Origin: a virus
Virus genome (UHGV): UHGV-0115523
Strand: one strand, 5' to 3'
Length of the DNA stretch: 25,861 nucleotides
A program made the translations under genes and the position numbers. The notes beneath the pieces are model-generated. The model was not told where the DNA came from. It searched no databases and worked only from the letters and a program-made list of their open reading frames with translations. Shown here one piece after another: positions 13,037 to 24,749 of this stretch (positions within the stretch are counted from its first letter, which is position 1; each line of letters begins with the position of its first letter).

Positions 13037-13318
13037 TCAAAAAGATAATAATCGCCCCCCAACATTTTCGATAAAATCTAACTCTAACTCCTCCATATCG
13101 GATATTATCATGAGATGAATAGGCAATATCAATTGAAGTTTATTTATTTTCATTCTCAAAAGAATAACATCTGGAACATAACCAACGATTAAAATATCGA
13201 TGTCATTGGCTTCATCGATACTTTTGAGTGCGGAGCCAAACAAATAAACCCGGACTCCATACAAGCAATGCTCCAAAATAATATCACAAACAGCTTCAGT
13301 TATAACTGATAAATTCAT
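13037..13318 (-). CDS. Minimal nucleotidyltransferase (MNT, Pol-beta superfamily) domain protein, about 93 aa; start trimmed to the Met that overlaps the upstream stop
   Basis: Motif LFGSALKSIDEANDIDILIV fits hG[GS]-x9-DhD; ATG at 13316-13318 overlaps the upstream TGA (TGATG coupling); AT-rich. Confidence 0.6.
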   Translation of the reverse strand: MNLSVITEAVCDIILEHCLYGVRVYLFGSALKSIDEANDIDILIVGYVPDVILLRMKINKLQLILPIHLMIISDMEELELDFIENVGGRLLSF

Positions 13319-13968
13319 CACTTCGAAATTCGACTCAGCAAATCTCCCCATTTGAATATTTCAATATTCATACTTCGGGCTGCAATGGTAGCCTCATGGG
13401 TAATTCTACTATAAGGGTTAGACGATAAAATAATATCGCAACCGCCATGTATCTGACATGCAGTGCGCACAGCCTCTGCACTCAAATCATAATCATTCAC
13501 GGAAAGAATAATCAAACTTGGTCCTGAACACCTTTCAACCATATATTTTTTATTGGTCAACCTTTCGACACTGCTGACATCAGAGTGTTGACGGAGTCCA
13601 CGGATAATAAATTTATTTTCTTTATCAAGATGTTCACTGATATTTTCTAAATCTAAACCCGTTGAAAAACGTCCAAAAGAATCATATGCAATCCCTTTTG
13701 ACCGTAGCAACTCAATTGCATCTCCAGACATAAATAACAAATCGCCTTGAATAATTAGTATATTTAATTCTTTATCATTCAAATATTCATTTAAATCGGA
13801 TAGTTCTATTCTTCCTGCATTTACAGCACCAACAAGATATATCTCCCCATTCCTTGTTGTTACCGTTAAAGTTTGATTGTCATGTTCTATAACATTATCA
13901 ACACTATGTTTAGTGCATAACTTTTTATTCATCCAATTAATAAAATTCTGACTCATTCCAATGCTCAT
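13318..13968 (-). CDS. Hypothetical 216-aa protein, middle gene of the cargo operon (contains an RGLRQH stretch; function unknown)
   Basis: Long ORF tightly coupled to flanking genes (3-nt gap upstream, 1-nt overlap downstream); AGGGTGA RBS; AT-rich. Confidence 0.5.
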   Translation of the reverse strand: MSIGMSQNFINWMNKKLCTKHSVDNVIEHDNQTLTVTTRNGEIYLVGAVNAGRIELSDLNEYLNDKELNILIIQGDLLFMSGDAIELLRSKGIAYDSFGRFSTGLDLENISEHLDKENKFIIRGLRQHSDVSSVERLTNKKYMVERCSGPSLIILSVNDYDLSAEAVRTACQIHGGCDIILSSNPYSRITHEATIAARSMNIEIFKWGDLLSRISK

Positions 13969-13971
13969 AAC

Positions 13972-14667
13972 TCACCCTTTAAATAAATCAATTGCTTCAG
14001 GAGGGAATTTCTCACCATTATCACATGTTAACTCTAAATGTTTTGATTCAAAATCATCAACATGCATGCAAAGCTTAACAAAAACATCTTTTTCATCTTC
14101 ATGAATTAATTGATAATTTTTATCAATTAGTCTTATAATTTTTCTGTTATTAGGTAGGATATGTGTTTGGATTTTCCTTAACCATATATTTACTTGCGGA
14201 CTTTCAGGGTTTAGTGCTGCCTCTGATTGGGGTCCATACGTATTAAATATTACTTTATTTTCCCTAAACAACTTATCAAGCTCAGCATGTACCTCTTCAC
14301 GGCTATCAAACTCACGAACTCCAAAGGTTGCATTAATTTTCGCGATATGCTCTCCTTTCCATCCCCTGATAATTTCATCCGTATAATAATTCTCAGCTTT
14401 ATCTATTTTAGTATGACAATTAGCGCAAAGAAGAATTATATTATCAAAATACCCTCTCTCTTCGGCAGTTAATTCCGTATTAGTTCTAGGCCCATTATCA
14501 ATTGCACTGAATATATGCGCCAATTCACCAATTGTAATAATTTTATCTCCAGCATCTTCGAACAACGGTTCAAGACATTTAGGGTTCTGGCAATACCCAC
14601 CTGAACTTGCGAAGAGCTTCCTGACTGTGATTGATCCGGGACTAGCCCGCCCTCGTGAACATGCCAT
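13972..14667 (-). CDS. HNH nuclease-domain protein (N-terminal HNH motif plus about 140-aa C-terminal domain of unknown function)
   Basis: CQNPKC ... ELAHI ... FDNIILLCANCH gives the CxxC...H...N...CxxCH HNH signature; AGGAGA RBS; first gene of the three-gene operon. Confidence 0.65.
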   Translation of the reverse strand: MACSRGRASPGSITVRKLFASSGGYCQNPKCLEPLFEDAGDKIITIGELAHIFSAIDNGPRTNTELTAEERGYFDNIILLCANCHTKIDKAENYYTDEIIRGWKGEHIAKINATFGVREFDSREEVHAELDKLFRENKVIFNTYGPQSEAALNPESPQVNIWLRKIQTHILPNNRKIIRLIDKNYQLIHEDEKDVFVKLCMHVDDFESKHLELTCDNGEKFPPEAIDLFKG

Positions 14668-15147: not shown

Positions 15148-15573
15148 ATGAAAAGCTTTTACGTATTAATTTTAATTCTGGTTGCAAGCTTTGTTAGCGT
15201 CCCAGTTCAGGCGGTAACAGCTAAAAACTATGAGAAAGGAACTAAAGCTCAACAGAAATCAATATCTTACCTTTCATGTGCATTCTATGGCAGTAGCACA
15301 CAATTAGATCCTAGCTACACGGAGCAAGTACCTACAGCCGATATCAAGATATTACAGAAAGCAGCTTACCACGCTTACAACGATGCGCTCTCATACTTTG
15401 GCTATGAGGAACCAGATCACGAACAACGCATAATTGATTATGCTGAATTTGTGGCGTCGCAAGAAGCTGTGTTATGGGATAAGCCGGGAATGAATGGAAA
15501 GCAGGTAACACTAATTGCTCGTTCTCTCTACAATGAGAGTAACTGTAACTTGTTACTGGACTCAATTAAGTAG
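15148..15573 (+). CDS. Secreted or periplasmic hypothetical protein with cleavable signal peptide (cargo)
   Basis: N-terminus MKSFYVLILILVASFVSVPVQA then mature domain; GAGGT RBS; AT-rich. Confidence 0.55.
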   Translation: MKSFYVLILILVASFVSVPVQAVTAKNYEKGTKAQQKSISYLSCAFYGSSTQLDPSYTEQVPTADIKILQKAAYHAYNDALSYFGYEEPDHEQRIIDYAEFVASQEAVLWDKPGMNGKQVTLIARSLYNESNCNLLLDSIK

Positions 15574-15732: not shown

Positions 15733-15966
15733 TTAATGCAGCCAGCTGTCGTCTTCCCACACCTTCTGCATAATCTTCATCACTTGTTTTCTTTCTTCGT
15801 CCAGTTGCAGTCCGGTCAGTTCCACACCGTTAGAGCTACCTTTGCGGATGCGAATTACCATTTTGGGATACAGGGGGCGCAGATTGCGGTAAAGCTCGGA
15901 TTCAAGGGCGTCCAGGGTAGACTGGCTAATCTTCTGCTCTTTATCGATCATTATTTCAATGCGCAT
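15733..15966 (-). CDS. DinI-family protein (about 77 aa)
   Basis: MRIEIMIDKEQKISQSTLDALESELYRNLRPLYPKMVIRIRKGSSNGVELTGLQLDEERKQVMKIMQKVWEDDSWLH matches the DinI pattern (MRIE..., acidic W-containing C-terminus); GAGGTG RBS; the ORF-track frame extends upstream to 16038 but that start is less likely. Confidence 0.65.
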   Translation of the reverse strand: MRIEIMIDKEQKISQSTLDALESELYRNLRPLYPKMVIRIRKGSSNGVELTGLQLDEERKQVMKIMQKVWEDDSWLH

Positions 15967-15976
15967 AAAGGTCACC

Positions 15977-16165
15977 TCAGCTGATGACATCCATTGAGCG
16001 GTTGTATTCGTGGGTTCTGATTTTTGCCATGAGTTCATCAGTCAATTCAGAAACCCACTGCAGAGCCAGCCCCTTCTCTTCATCACTACACTCACTAGCC
16101 GCTACAAGCTTAAGAAAAAAATCAATGCGCTGGAGCTTCAAAGACTCCAAAAAATAGTCCTGCAT
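15977..16165 (-). CDS. Small 62-aa protein, first gene of a LexA-box-controlled cassette
   Basis: Strong AGGAGG RBS 7 nt upstream of the ATG; LexA box 43-58 bp upstream; stop 10 nt before the DinI-like start. Confidence 0.5.
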   Translation of the reverse strand: MQDYFLESLKLQRIDFFLKLVAASECSDEEKGLALQWVSELTDELMAKIRTHEYNRSMDVIS

Positions 16166-16207
16166 CTTTCCTCCTATGACACCAAAGTAATACTGTATAT
16201 ATAACCA

Positions 16208-16223
16208 CTGTCTATATTTACAG
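16208..16223 (-). promoter_or_regulatory. LexA (SOS) box CTGT-N8-ACAG
   Basis: actgtctatatttacagta is near-consensus to TACTGTATATATATACAGTA; an adjacent half-site tactgtatat lies at 16191-16200. Confidence 0.65.
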
Positions 16224-16317
16224 TATATAATAATCTTACTGATGTAAAACGTTTTTTTACGTTCATCAGCCTGAAATGCCTGGTATTATTAAGAGCACGA
16301 ATTGTTAACCCGCGTAA

Positions 16318-18732
16318 TTAATACAGGTTCCGCCACTTATCATCTTCCTGCAAACGCTGGTTCCGATAGAAGATACGCAGGCCTGCTCCTGACGGAATAC
16401 TGCCGCCGCGAAGGAGTAAATCGACCTCTTTCTCGCTGCCATCAAATCCTCTGGACTTCAGTTCATAGACGAGCTGCTGTCGCTGATGGTCTGTAATTCG
16501 CTGTTTGTAGTCTTTACGCCGTTTCGGTTTCACCAGGCGTAACCTTGCAGCCAGTTCCCGGCGCTCTTTTTTGCTCATACTGTGCAGGTATTCGTGCAAC
16601 TCCTTGTCATCCATGCGGGTAATGTCCGTTCTGGTATCCCCATCAGCTGATTTGTCTTCCCCTTGTTGGTTCAAATTTTCAGCAAGGGGACAGTTATTGC
16701 CACGAGTCCAAGGGGCGCAAGCGCCCTGGTCGGCTGCCGCCTCCTGAACGTCAACGGCTTTACGAACCATTTTCCACTTCACTGCATGAGTGCAGATCTT
16801 GCCCTCTGCAATGGGTGACCAGATGCCATAAATACGAATGCCGTGATCGCCATAGGCGGTCGGCTCTTCGTTGATTTCATAAGCGGTTCTGATGAGGTGA
16901 TATTTACGGGGAACCAGCACGCCGCCCTGCTTCATGATGTAGGTGGCAAAACAACCAGCATCAGCAGCAGCCAAGATGGCATCAAGGCGCGGGTTATCCA
17001 GTACCGGCGCACCTGCTTTTTTGTCCCCCTGTTGCCTTGACGCCTGACCAGCCAGCAATCGCAGTTCACGGTAAGCCTGACGCCCCGGAATGCCAAAGAA
17101 GCGGAATTGCTGAACACGATGCAAAGACGCCCAGGCGTTCACGTATTCAGCGTTATCACGCAGAGATTTACCCGTTACCTTGCTGATCTCGCCAGCCAGA
17201 CCACGCCCGTCAATGTTCTTACTGATGTATTTCGCTATGTAGCTTGTCGGCGTTCCTTTGCGCGGGTTAATCAGCTCAGACTTAAAGCGCGGCCCCGTGT
17301 TATTGCCCAGCTCCTCGCGGTCTTCACGGATAGCAAACTTACGCAACAATGCAGTAATGGCGCGGCGGTCTTTTTTGCGCATGAAACACAACAGGTGCCA
17401 GTGAACTGTGCCGTCGTGATGCGGCTCAGCCACCCGCACGCCATACCAGCGCAACCCGGCTTTGTGCATCGCCTTACGAAATGCAGCAAACATACCGACC
17501 AGATAATCGCTGCTTTGTCTTACCGTCGCATTTGTCCAGGTCGGGTTGGGCCTGCCGTTATTTAGCGTGGAATGGAAACGTGACGGACAGGTGATGGTGT
17601 AGAAAACGGCGCAGTCACCGCGCATTTCCGCGATAAGCTCCAGACCTTTAACACAGGCCATCATCTCATTGCGGCGATGCGCAGGGTTGCTGCTGCTGGC
17701 GTTTACCACATCCTCCATGTCCAGCGTGTCGCCGTCTTCGTTCACCAGTTCATGAGAACGGAAAAACTCCAGCGACTTACGGCGCTGCTCACGTTTATGC
17801 AACACGGCTTCATAGCTGACATAGGGAGATGCTTTTTTGCTGACAAGGCAGACAGCACGCAACTGCTCTTCCCGCCATTCGCAACGCATCTTCCATAATT
17901 TCCGATACCACCAATCGGCGCACAACATACGCGCCAGCGAACCCGGAATGAGTTCATAGGGCACGGGTTTACGGCGGTTTCTTTTCCGGCGGAGTTGCTC
18001 AAACGCAGGCGGGATGACATCCAGTCGCAGGGTTTCTGCTGCCACCTTTTCCCATGTCTTGCGGATTTCTTCTGGCTTAACATCATCGGTGGCGTACAAA
18101 TCACCACAAGCGGCATCAAGACACATACTCATATGCGCAGCGACAAGAGTAGACAGGCGTTTCACCTGATCCTGACTCATTTCAGGCAGGATCAGCAGGC
18201 CGTCCAGCCCTTCATGGCTTGCCATAAAGCGAAAAGAAGTGGATAGCTGACTGTCGCGTACATGCTCCAGTCGTTCCAGACATGGCTTAATCGTCTCACG
18301 CAAATAGCGGGAATAAGCCTTTGGCCTCCCCAGGCTGCTGAAGTATTCGATACGTTGCATCAGCGGCTTGCTGATGTGGGTGGGCTGGGCGCTGACGTCC
18401 GCCAGAATGACGATGTCCGGGTTAAAACGCTGCTGCTCATGCGCCAGCTTTGCCCGACTAATGAGCTTATCCTGCTCCATTTCGCGCTGGACAGGATCAC
18501 GGGATTCATTAAAGAAATAACGCTCCCAGACCTGTTCACTCAATTCCTCGCGGCGCAGCTGTTCCTGCTCGTTATCGGCAGCATACAGAGTGATCAGGTT
18601 TGAAAGCGCAGAAACCGGCGCAACTTCCGCCGGGTCCAGATAAGGGTTTATGGCCTTTTTCGGGCCGTTCCATGAAAATGCTGCAGCGGCCTCGTTAAAG
18701 CCGCTAGAGTCGCTCATATCGGCATGACTCAT
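16318..18732 (-). CDS. A: Replication initiation endonuclease (P2 gpA-like, rolling-circle initiator)
   Basis: 804 aa; position upstream of cos and downstream of the early genes as in P2/186. Confidence 0.8.
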
Positions 18733-20773: not shown

Positions 20774-20998
20774 CTATCGTTCTTTGTTCTTACGGTAACG
20801 TTCAAGAGGAGATACATTTTTTCGTATCGTCTCTTTAACCTGCTCTCCCCGTAAAAACGTCCCATCCTTTAACGTGAAAAAGTAACTGCCATCGCCCGAC
20901 AATGACGGATAGCAACAGAGCAAATCATCTTCAGGTACTGAATAACTCTCCCCTCTGTAACGAAACTGATAAACCACTTCACTTTCTGCCGCATACAT
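20774..20998 (-). CDS. Hypothetical early protein (74 aa)
   Basis: GGAGAAAG RBS 6 nt upstream of the ATG at 20996-20998. Confidence 0.4.
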   Translation of the reverse strand: MYAAESEVVYQFRYRGESYSVPEDDLLCCYPSLSGDGSYFFTLKDGTFLRGEQVKETIRKNVSPLERYRKNKER

Positions 20999-21195
20999 TT
21001 GGACTTTCTCCGTTTCCTCGTGGTCAATTCAGACAGCAATTCATCTTGTGAATGACATGGATGCCAGCGTTTTCCATCCTCACCCGTGATCCAGCCGTGA
21101 CCGTAGTGCATTGCCGGGCTTTGTTTTACCAGCAGCGATGCAAATGATGGTTCTTTCGTCAGCATAAGCACCTCACAGCAAACCAAATGAAGCAC
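20869..21195 (-). CDS. Hypothetical ORF overlapping the 74-aa gene in another frame (uncertain)
   Basis: 108-aa ORF whose 3' 130 nt overlap the neighbouring gene; could be a real overlapping gene, a frameshifted gene, or spurious. Confidence 0.25.
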   Translation of the reverse strand: MLHLVCCEVLMLTKEPSFASLLVKQSPAMHYGHGWITGEDGKRWHPCHSQDELLSELTTRKRRKSKCMRQKVKWFISFVTEGRVIQYLKMICSVAIRHCRAMAVTFSR

Positions 21196-21682
21196 CGAGG
21201 CCAGTCACGGTATCAACTGCACTCGCCATCGCAGGGTTAGCCTGTAAACGGGCCTGCAATGAAACAGCGGCCAACGCCATCAGTCGTGTTACAGAGTTAA
21301 TGCTGCTGATAGCTTCGCGACGGCCTGCACTGGTTTTTACATCGCCAGATACCGCACCTGCAGCAACACGCCCGATCTCTGCGGTTGCACTCATGACGTA
21401 ATGTGGCAGTTTCTCTTTTGCCACCTCATTAATCGGTACACATGGCAGACAATGAATCTGTGCCAGAAAACCGTCTACCAGCGTTGAATCTTCAGTCAGA
21501 TCGGTAAGTAGCCAGATATCTGGTGCGGTTAATAAATGAGGTTGAGCTGGGTTCAGCTTGTTCCGCAGAATCTGCACATTCATGCCTGCACGTTCTGCCA
21601 GTTGCACCAGGTTGTGGCGCAGTGCGAATACTCGACAGGCTTCATCAAAATGTGGATGTTTGGAAACTTGGTAATCAAACAT
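21173..21682 (-). CDS. cII: CII-like transcriptional activator of lysogeny establishment (186 CII family)
   Basis: 169 aa, the same length as 186 CII; N-terminus [45 protein letters not shown] and C-terminus ...[21 protein letters not shown] match my recollection of 186 CII; position after apl. Confidence 0.7.
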
Positions 21683-22061: not shown

Positions 22062-22943
22062 ATGAATTTCAAAAACGGAGGACAAGCAGTCATAACGCGC
22101 ATGCTTGAAGCGTATGGATTCAAGACAAGGCAAGCTCTGTGCGAACAGTTCAACGTATCTGCAAGCACTATGGGCACGCGCTGGATGCGTGACGTATTTC
22201 CTGCTGACTGGGTAATTCAGTGTGCAATTGAAACGGGTGCATCTATCGAGTGGCTCTCATTCGGAAAAGGCGTACCATTCCCTCAGAGTACTGAGGCTCC
22301 GGTCATGTCAAAGGCAACTGCATCAAAGGTTCAGCACGTTTCTCAAGCCACCACCCTGAAGTCCCCAATTGGGAACGATCTGAATTTTGACTCAGGCGGA
22401 CGTGATGCAATAGACAGGCTAATGAAAGCGTATGGCTTTAAAACAAGACAAGAACTTGCCGACCATCTGAATGTATCTAAAAGCACTATGGCAAATAGAT
22501 ATTTGCGAGACACATTCCCGGCTGATTGGATCATAAAATGTTCGTTGGAAACAGGAAATTCTCTTTTATGGCTAGCCACTGGACAAGGCAGCGAGCACAA
22601 TGCTCTCACAACATCGGTAAAAGAACTGCCTAAATTTCATCTCAATGCAGGCAAAATGGTTGAGAGTGGCTCATATATTTTCGATTCGTCATTTTTACCC
22701 GCTAATCTTTCAGCACCAATTGTCGTTCAGGATGGTTTAGTGGCATACATCTGTGATCAGAAATTTTCTGATGTATTAGATGGATACTGGTTAATTAATA
22801 TTGATGGAACCTATTCCGTCAGACAAATTACTAGGCTACCTAAAGGTATGATAAATATCAGAAGTAAAGAAACTTACTTTGAATGTGCATTTTCTGATAT
22901 CGAGGTAGTTGCATGCATAAGAAGCACAATCATTTCGAATTAA
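22062..22943 (+). CDS. cI: CI immunity repressor (186 CI family) with a tandemly duplicated N-terminal DNA-binding domain
   Basis: Two copies of the 186-CI-type NTD signature (AYGFKTRQ...NVS.STM..R..RD.FPADW.I.C..ETG.S..WL..G.G) at residues ~9-70 and ~115-176; 293 aa versus about 192 aa for 186 CI. Confidence 0.7.
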   Translation: MNFKNGGQAVITRMLEAYGFKTRQALCEQFNVSASTMGTRWMRDVFPADWVIQCAIETGASIEWLSFGKGVPFPQSTEAPVMSKATASKVQHVSQATTLKSPIGNDLNFDSGGRDAIDRLMKAYGFKTRQELADHLNVSKSTMANRYLRDTFPADWIIKCSLETGNSLLWLATGQGSEHNALTTSVKELPKFHLNAGKMVESGSYIFDSSFLPANLSAPIVVQDGLVAYICDQKFSDVLDGYWLINIDGTYSVRQITRLPKGMINIRSKETYFECAFSDIEVVACIRSTIISN

Positions 22944-23023: not shown

Positions 23024-24226
23024 ATGAGTAAAACCAACTTTAAAACTGAACGCGGCATTATAACATTTTTTGATTTAGAAATGTTTGGCCTTTATAAAAT
23101 ACGACAAGGCAAATCGCCGGAATTAGTCGAAAAGAACTTATCCCATGTTCTGTGTAACTTACATAGCTGGATCTGTTCAAGAACAGTTGAACAATCTGTT
23201 CCATGGGGAAAGGATAATAATAGAAGAACAAAAGCATACTGTAAAAATATTTCATATGACAGTACGACAGGAGATTATCTATTTGTTATCTGGAAAACGC
23301 TTGGTGATAACTCTGGAAATATTCAAGGTATAGATGCTGAAAGTAAGATTGACGGCACTTCAGATAATGTTGTATCCGCCTCTGATACTCAAGGTGGCGG
23401 TAAATATATCTGGGGCGTACCTTGCTACTATTGGGTAATTCCAGAATATAACAAAATTGCATCCATACGATTCCCAAGTTCTAATACGGATACAGATCTT
23501 TTCTGTCATTATATTAAAGCATACGTTGACTTTAGGATGGAGCATCCTAATAAAAAAGTCATAGATATGACTCGTCCTCGTAATGACTCACCTGAAGACG
23601 TTCATTACAAACGTGTTCTTTTTTCTCAAGGTGATGATGAAAGTTTAGTTTTTAAAGTACAGACTAAACAAACAAGGATGATCACGAGTGGAGCAAACAT
23701 AGAAGAACTGTGTAAAAAAATCACTCACATTGTTTACCATGACGTAATAGAAACAAACATACCTGATACACGGGAAAAATGGCAGAAGTTATTTGATGCA
23801 GTTGGAGATGTTTTCTCAAGAAGCTCTCCTATTTTATCAAAAAAACATCGCGTTGAATTATTAGTCGAAGGAACGCCTACGCCTGAAGAGTTCACTAAAC
23901 TCATCGATGAATATATAGAAAACCACAATCCTATTTCAGAAGATACAGAAAACAACAATGAGAATGTAGGGAATGATCACGCACGCATCGGATTCAAAAT
24001 AAATGGGAAAAATGGTTCAACTACTTGGTTAGATGAATATGTTTATCGCCATGAAATTCACGTTGACCTTTCTAACAGAAACAAACATTACTCTTCTTCA
24101 TATTTAATGAGTGTGGTAAAAGCTCATAGAAATGATTTGGTGAATTGTTTTAAAAATGAAGATATAATAGAACAACCAGAAGCTGATAATGATACAGCAG
24201 TGCAGATTCATAAAATAGGTGCATAG
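23024..24226 (+). CDS. Hypothetical 400-aa protein (cargo; candidate sensor of a two-gene module)
   Basis: Long AT-rich ORF immediately downstream of cI on the same strand; no motif recognised. Confidence 0.55.
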   Translation: MSKTNFKTERGIITFFDLEMFGLYKIRQGKSPELVEKNLSHVLCNLHSWICSRTVEQSVPWGKDNNRRTKAYCKNISYDSTTGDYLFVIWKTLGDNSGNIQGIDAESKIDGTSDNVVSASDTQGGGKYIWGVPCYYWVIPEYNKIASIRFPSSNTDTDLFCHYIKAYVDFRMEHPNKKVIDMTRPRNDSPEDVHYKRVLFSQGDDESLVFKVQTKQTRMITSGANIEELCKKITHIVYHDVIETNIPDTREKWQKLFDAVGDVFSRSSPILSKKHRVELLVEGTPTPEEFTKLIDEYIENHNPISEDTENNNENVGNDHARIGFKINGKNGSTTWLDEYVYRHEIHVDLSNRNKHYSSSYLMSVVKAHRNDLVNCFKNEDIIEQPEADNDTAVQIHKIGA

Positions 24227-24227
24227 T

Positions 24228-24749
24228 ATGATTATAAAACCTAAAATTTTGCACATATGTTTTCTCCTAACAATTATAGCTATTGCTTATTTGTTCGGAG
24301 ACAAATATACGTATGCAGATATAAAAGATATTTTATCTACCTTGCAAAACATTTCTGCAATGATCTTCACTATTGCAGGTATTTGGCTTGCATATATTTA
24401 CCCTGCAGCTGTAAGTTCAATTGTAAAGCCATCAACAATAACTAGTATAAACTATCATAAGGAAACAGAAAAAGATATTGAGCGAATTACGCTGATAGTG
24501 AAAACCATTATAATTTCAGCTATTGTAATATTTTCTATTGTTATAATAAATTTAACGAAACCTATATTTTCAAATCTGGATTTCATTTCCTTGCATAAGC
24601 ACGTGTTCTGCAAGTTTGGATTTTTTATCACAGCGTTATTAGTATATCTACAAATAATAGCGTTATTTAGTATCATTGCTAGTAATATATTATTTCTTAA
24701 TGATATACATGATAAAAGAAATAAACGAGAGCTTGATAAATTAAGGTAA
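24228..24749 (+). CDS. Small integral membrane protein with four predicted TM helices (cargo; candidate membrane effector)
   Basis: Four hydrophobic stretches; ATG at 24228 with AGGTG RBS, one nt after the upstream stop; GTG at 24219 is the ORF-track alternative. Confidence 0.55.
   Translation: MIIKPKILHICFLLTIIAIAYLFGDKYTYADIKDILSTLQNISAMIFTIAGIWLAYIYPAAVSSIVKPSTITSINYHKETEKDIERITLIVKTIIISAIVIFSIVIINLTKPIFSNLDFISLHKHVFCKFGFFITALLVYLQIIALFSIIASNILFLNDIHDKRNKRELDKLR

Follow-up and report, generated by a model that had tools for sequence, protein, structure and literature searches.

A probable two-gene tum operon behind a predicted double LexA operator in a 186/Fels-2-type P2-like prophage

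The DNA analysed here, a 25,861-nt stretch of virus genome UHGV-0115523 (hereafter the window), very probably carries, in a two-gene form (tumA-tumB), the LexA-repressed SOS operon of a P2-like prophage of 186/Fels-2 type. This two-gene tum is intact, very common and ordinary; it is not a broken gene. The split tum operon is already known from the literature and from the GenBank record of PSP3, and the present copy is 98% identical to that of Fels-2, which leaves little new biology in the arrangement itself and gives it a mainly practical value, that of annotation. Possibly worth a small experiment are its double LexA operator, the association of one TumA with many types of CI repressor, and the optional DinI partner.

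The cassette and its operator

The cassette lies on the minus strand, downstream of replication gene A (gpA, 16318-18732, minus strand; Pfam Phage_GPA, 2.5e-127), and consists, in order, of a LexA box, a 62-aa gene and a DinI-family gene. A spacer of 152 nt separates gene A from the 62-aa open reading frame, tumA (15977-16165, minus strand, ATG at 16165), whose AGGAGG ribosome-binding site (16170-16175, minus strand) stands 4 nt ahead of the start codon. The 77-aa DinI gene, tumB (15733-15966, minus strand, ATG at 15966), follows after a gap of 10 nt; the tumA stop codon TGA (15977-15979) overlaps the tumB ribosome-binding site GAGGTG (15973-15978), and each gene has a separate ribosome-binding site and ATG. 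The initial annotation had described this succession of genes and signals, and its coordinates are confirmed. It had also seen correctly that the DinI frame extends upstream over the 62-aa gene (it stays open to 16038, as a 101-aa frame that is +1 relative to tumA) and that a Tum-like frame of 140-150 aa is missing: no such frame occurs at the cassette, and there is no 146-aa Tum. No intrinsic terminator was called after tumB in a sigma-70/terminator scan.

In its position, between gene A and cos/Q, the cassette matches the p95/tum operon of 186, as had been proposed from the first reading; gpA adjoins it, and the order of gene A followed by tum is common to 186, PSP3 and Fels-2. The CI repressor, CII (CP76, 21173-21682) and Fil (20869-21195) of the window are also of 186 type.

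LexA box 1 (CACTGTCTATATTTACAGTA on the plus strand, TACTGTAAATATAGACAGTG on the coding strand; 16206-16225, minus strand) contains a perfect CTGT-N8-ACAG, agrees with the 20-nt consensus at 17 of 20 positions and is separated by 40 nt from the tumA ATG at 16165. The initial annotation had placed a LexA box here, and the location stands, although the box runs 2 nt beyond position 16223, at which the cassette had been ended. Box 1 is the sole occurrence of CTGT-N8-ACAG in the 25.9 kb, a pattern found at least once in 24 of 100 shuffled sequences, and it is the only site in the window with 3 mismatches or fewer from TACTGTATATATATACAGTA, for which none of 100 shuffles held a site. It is conserved at 97% or more of its positions across 82 related loci. 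More broadly, a LexA box stands 33-57 nt ahead of the tumA start in every TumA lineage examined, despite divergence of TumA to about 30% identity.

A second box, absent from the initial annotation (CAGTGGTTATATATACAGTA, 16191-16210, minus strand), shares 5 nt with box 1, agrees with the consensus at 16 of 20 positions and has a CCAC half-site. Together the boxes form a 35-nt unit (16191-16225) that is identical at 30 of 35 positions to TACTGTATATAAAACCAGTGGTTATATGTACAGTA, which lies upstream of a cloacin-like bacteriocin gene (L005, 1502-1536). The 82 related loci differ in the spacer of box 2 but retain its half-sites, and Fels-2 has the cloacin box unchanged as its box 2. Colicin and cloacin operators are likewise 35 nt long, with two 20-nt LexA boxes that share 5 nt, and the operator of the window is a predicted colicin-type pair of overlapping SOS boxes. 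Double boxes of this type bind two LexA dimers and repress transcription very tightly (PMC2994835); the window operator would presumably accommodate two dimers as well. The colicin and cloacin operators serve a bacteriocin gene, whereas the operator of the window would serve a prophage antirepressor and has an unrelated promoter upstream. In 186, PSP3 and all other TumA lineages examined, the LexA box is single.

A putative SOS promoter (16220-16248, minus strand) is formed by a -35 element TTTACA (16243-16248) and a -10 element TACTGT (16220-16225) with a 17-nt spacer. The putative -10 sits within LexA box 1, a layout conserved in related loci, and the annotated p95 promoter of 186 likewise has its -10 TACTGT within the LexA site. 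Our placement of the tum promoter is by analogy only; because its -10 agrees at only 3 of 6 positions, it was missed by a simple sigma-70 scan.

Between gene A and the tum promoter lies an imperfect hairpin, CTGATGAACGT-A7-ACGTTTTACATCAG (16239-16269, minus strand), whose 3' arm contains the tum -35 element and which is kept in almost all of the 82 related loci. The scan did not call it as an intrinsic terminator because no T-run follows it. It possibly insulates the SOS operon from read-through of the early operon. In Gifsy SOS loci, terminator-like palindromes stand at this place.

We also observed that the tumA leader of one IMG/VR relative (L006) holds a group II intron (Rfam RF02005, 186.6 bits; 8083 to about 9960), inserted exactly after the ...AAACAGT of LexA box 1 and parting the two boxes. 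In a further locus (L147), where tum is of 186 type and fused, its LexA box is directly followed by the same intron 3' end. It is curious that, in two lineages, an intron has landed at the right-hand half of the tum SOS box.

The two gene products and the halves of Tum

The downstream product is readily placed. TumB matches Pfam DinI (PF06183) at 5.4e-23 (81.5 bits against a cut-off of 24.2) over profile positions 1-63 of 63, and its full-length alignment with E. coli DinI (1GHH, E 4.3e-6) takes in the acidic W-E-D-D-S-W segment at the C-terminus. TumB is 98.7% identical to Fels-2 TumB, 76.6% identical to PSP3 TumB and 40% identical to residues 71-145 of 186 Tum (E 2e-23). As a member of this family, TumB would bind RecA filaments and modulate their co-protease activity.

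TumA is 98.4% identical to Fels-2 STM2728, and its sequence gave no match in Pfam, PADLOC or a PDB sequence search; in PHROGs it falls in an unnamed family, PHROG 698 ('unknown function'). Of the alignments to 186 Tum and DinI that the initial annotation had suggested as a check, that of TumB bore out the expectation directly, while TumA gave no alignment to 186 Tum by BLASTP and was connected to it by profiles, which are needed here because the pairwise search finds nothing. The relatives gathered in an exhaustive profile search fell into 87 family clusters at 50% identity, and a profile built from 41 diverse relatives of the 62-aa protein matched residues 5-43 of 186 Tum (33.5 bits, E 1.6e-12). 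In a family-to-family comparison with hhalign, TumA and the N-terminal part of 186 Tum were aligned collinearly, positions 4-44 to positions 4-44, at 96.9% (E 1.5e-10). The diversity of the representatives mattered: an earlier hhalign run on low-diversity alignments had returned a probability of only 32%. On this profile evidence TumA is a homologue of the N-terminal half of 186 Tum. Since TumA matches the N-terminus of Tum and TumB its C-terminal half, the two frames correspond to the two halves of Tum, and the split tum that was raised as a possibility at first reading is borne out.

TumA is predicted to be a two-helix hairpin, with helices at 2-23 and 28-61 in an AF2 model of pLDDT 89. A Foldseek search of this model against the PDB returned only generic helical hairpins, all at E > 1.

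What surrounds TumA changes from lineage to lineage. In 186 the DinI partner is fused to it; in the Fels-2 type the partner begins after 10 nt, in the +1 frame; in PSP3 an in-frame TAG and 3 nt come between the two; in another lineage the gap is 9 nt, in frame 0; and two more lineages have no DinI gene. The DinI gene is thus optional across the TumA family. Because tumA and its LexA box are constant while the DinI partner varies, the pattern points to TumA as the effector and to the DinI protein as an accessory.

Among the closest known systems is Fels-2 of Salmonella Typhimurium LT2, where the gene behind STM2728 belongs to the DinI family and carries an annotation of similarity to PSP3 TumB; the 10-nt gap, the promoter, the double LexA operator and the location after gene A are shared with the window. 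The Fels-2 operator departs from ours at two bases, one of them in box 1 and the other in the box 2 spacer. Fels-2 differs otherwise in host and cargo, the window matching E. coli prophages at 99.9%; its gpA is 88.8% identical to that of the window, and it has an orf97-like gene, STM2726, that the window is without. PSP3 also has a two-gene operon after gene A and behind a LexA box, and its record describes tumA as 'similar to 5' end 186 tum; UV induction of prophage' and tumB as DinI-like. The PSP3 TumA (about 60 aa) is marginally similar to ours (p ~0.005), and the motif C-x6-LAL-x-LIA-x-L is common to both, but in PSP3 the LexA box is single and the genes share one frame, with TAG and 3 nt between them. 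In 186 itself the position, the LexA box over a -10 TACTGT and the 186-type CI target are as in the window, but Tum (146 aa) is one fused frame with a GTG start and a single LexA box, followed by orf97 downstream; in 186 a separate DinI-like product is also made, starting at an internal GTG that has a dedicated ribosome-binding site. More distant parallels are the dinI-gfoA/gftA loci of Gifsy-1/2/3 and AntC of N15, in which a LexA-repressed dinI homologue accompanies a small antirepressor of a non-cleavable repressor; such antirepressors are capable of acting on several repressors in trans (PMC3121763). These lambdoid phages differ in having dinI first and unrelated antirepressor and repressor families.

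Published work on these relatives bears on the function of TumA. 186 Tum looks like an antirepressor fused to DinI (Lemire 2011, PMC3121763), and it is cited there as having been shown to bind CI (Shearwin 1998). Tum is known to keep CI from its operators in this way and to be required for induction by UV or mitomycin. The same article cites Bunny 2002 for the splitting of tum in two by a stop codon in Fels-2 and PSP3, an arrangement that the initial annotation did not mention, and relays from a personal communication, second-hand, that the antirepressor activity of PSP3 resides in the upstream gene. In a Fels-2+ Salmonella strain, the STM2726-STM2727-STM2728 operon was induced by the mutagen MX in a microarray study, with STM2727 up 5.5-, 11.1- and 14.8-fold at the top of the LexA regulon table (PMC2225428). 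We infer that TumA is a CI antirepressor. Its homology to the N-terminal half of Tum also suggests that the prophage couples to the SOS response through a shorter antirepressor, one of the alternatives that the initial annotation had put forward.

In an undamaged cell, LexA bound to the double operator over the -10 and start region would keep the operon off. Upon DNA damage, activated RecA would promote self-cleavage of LexA and the operon would be transcribed; TumA would then bind the 186-type CI, CI would lose its operators, the lytic promoter would fire and the prophage would be induced. TumB, made from the same transcript, would have an accessory role, binding RecA filaments and so adjusting the SOS signal.

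CI repressors beside TumA

The presumed target of TumA is a 293-aa CI repressor (22062-22943, plus strand; Pfam 4.6e-59 and 1.2e-25) with two Phage_CI_repr HTH domains and Phage_CI_C. Pfam detected no Peptidase_S24 self-cleavage domain in it, so that SOS induction would require an antirepressor. The window CI has two tandem HTH domains ahead of CI_C, as against one in the 192-aa CI of 186; the long two-HTH form is common to PSP3 CI (286 aa) and 12 of 140 related loci. A 186-family CI is present in all related loci and in every lineage with TumA.

We sampled CI diversity in 80 IMG/VR loci with a TumA 100% identical to that of the window. This one identical protein adjoins at least 19 CI clusters (below 85% identity), while gpA in the same loci is about 97% identical in most and CII 91-99% identical. 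The N-terminal DNA-binding domains of these CIs are 51-92% identical (mean 68%), with an invariant core; for the C-terminal domains the range is 23-81% (mean 34%). To be an antirepressor, with at least 19 CI types beside one sequence of it, TumA would have to recognise a surface conserved among the CIs. Covariation of TumA and CI was considered as a pointer to the contact surface and dropped: a two-group comparison was clean, and the wider family broke the pattern, with no clean partition of TumA types by type of CI N-terminal domain.

The same diversity could be an argument for a different reading of the operon. TumA would be SOS-induced but would act elsewhere, for example on RecA/LexA, on a host factor or on repressors that belong to other prophages, and induction of the prophage would have another cause. 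One TumA linked to at least 19 CI clusters with C-terminal domains 23-81% identical, and TumA and CI types that are not cleanly correlated, would be expected of such a protein; the 'unknown function' label of TumA in all libraries and its generic helical-hairpin fold would fit it too. We nevertheless consider this unlikely. TumA is homologous to the non-DinI part of 186 Tum, cited in PMC3121763 as a CI binder, a 186-family CI accompanies it in every lineage, and the CI N-terminal domains beside the identical TumA retain their invariant core. Antirepressors that act in trans and cross-react are, moreover, documented in Salmonella prophages (PMC3121763). We therefore retain CI as the target, and binding of the window TumA to the window CI is what these observations would predict.

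If TumA does act on a conserved CI surface, a Fels-2-type TumA might be broad-spectrum, one invariant 62-aa sequence inactivating many different 186-family CIs. We regard this extension as possible but somewhat doubtful. Were it true, an SOS response in a polylysogen would cross-induce heteroimmune P2-like prophages, and this lineage, with a colicin-type double LexA operator that 186 and PSP3 do not have, would respond only at a higher level of damage.

Split genes, gene names and neighbouring cargo

The split between tumA and tumB is the normal state of this lineage. In Fels-2-type loci the genes are separate in all 83 cases, and 82 of the 83 keep the same 10-nt gap and +1 frame; among close 186-type loci, by contrast, 79 of 81 are fused. 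Across the 87 family clusters nearly all members are stand-alone proteins of 50-75 aa, and no N-terminal TumA match lies on a protein of Tum length (about 146 aa). Even the 186-type N-terminal module occurs on its own, as a 63-67-aa 'Tum protein'. The region as a whole has matches in 1126 of 5426 complete E. coli genomes, the best at 99.9%.

It could be argued that the active antirepressor is a Tum-like fusion made by a programmed +1 frameshift within the 62-nt overlap of the two frames. The DinI frame is indeed +1 to tumA and open across its 3' end, and the product, of about 140 aa, would be Tum-sized. Yet inspection of the sequence at 15977-16038 revealed no recognisable slippery or shift-prone site, tumB has a ribosome-binding site of its own, and the upstream gene of PSP3 is reported, in the second-hand account of PMC3121763, to be active alone. 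The junction, too, varies between lineages, some of which have no DinI gene, and a junction that differs in this way conserves no common recoding mechanism. We rejected the frameshift fusion on these grounds of conservation and consider it highly improbable.

The initial annotation had also allowed for a degenerate tum and had proposed resequencing for a frameshift. That the cassette is a 146-aa Tum decayed by frameshift or stop, leaving a non-inducible prophage, or else a sequencing error, might be suspected from the DinI frame, open for 72 nt upstream of its ATG over the 62-aa frame, and from the single fused frame of 186 and its close relatives, but it is extremely improbable and was rejected on conservation: the layout recurs in Fels-2 and in 82 of 83 related loci, each gene keeps its own start signals, the family stands alone in nearly all of its clusters and never at Tum length, TumA is 100% conserved in 80 loci with varying neighbours, the Fels-2 operon is damage-induced (PMC2225428) and the region is matched in 1126 E. 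coli genomes. The case for resequencing falls with it.

The presumed antirepressor gene, tumA, is labelled 'hypothetical protein' in RefSeq E. coli genomes and has no Pfam family. The name tumA would be transferable to thousands of such 'hypothetical' genes, and would flag the prophages that carry them as SOS-inducible via an antirepressor. Some TumA homologues are instead labelled 'levan regulatory (domain) protein' (UniRef for P0018; Klebsiella phage ST11-OXA245phi3.1), a name for which our analysis found no support.

A variable slot between tum and cos carries cargo (13972-14667 on the minus strand, 13318-13968 and 13037-13351). The first of these frames encodes a 231-aa HNH-endonuclease-like protein that matches the PADLOC candidate defence family PDC-M68A (1e-28) and also CBASS-type endonuclease effectors; it was tested as an orf97 homologue that would extend the SOS operon and is not a homologue. 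The frames at 13318-13968 and 13037-13351 had no matches. The two neighbours of CI (23024-24226 and 24219-24749, both on the plus strand) match the candidate defence system PDC-M18 (A, 2e-36; B, 5e-24), and no integrase domain was found in the 400-aa protein beside CI. Convergent with tumB is a 141-aa frame (15148-15573, plus strand) with a signal-peptide-like N-terminus, assigned to PHROG 7437 (unknown function); of the 80 loci that share the identical TumA, only 6 have this frame, at 98-100% identity.
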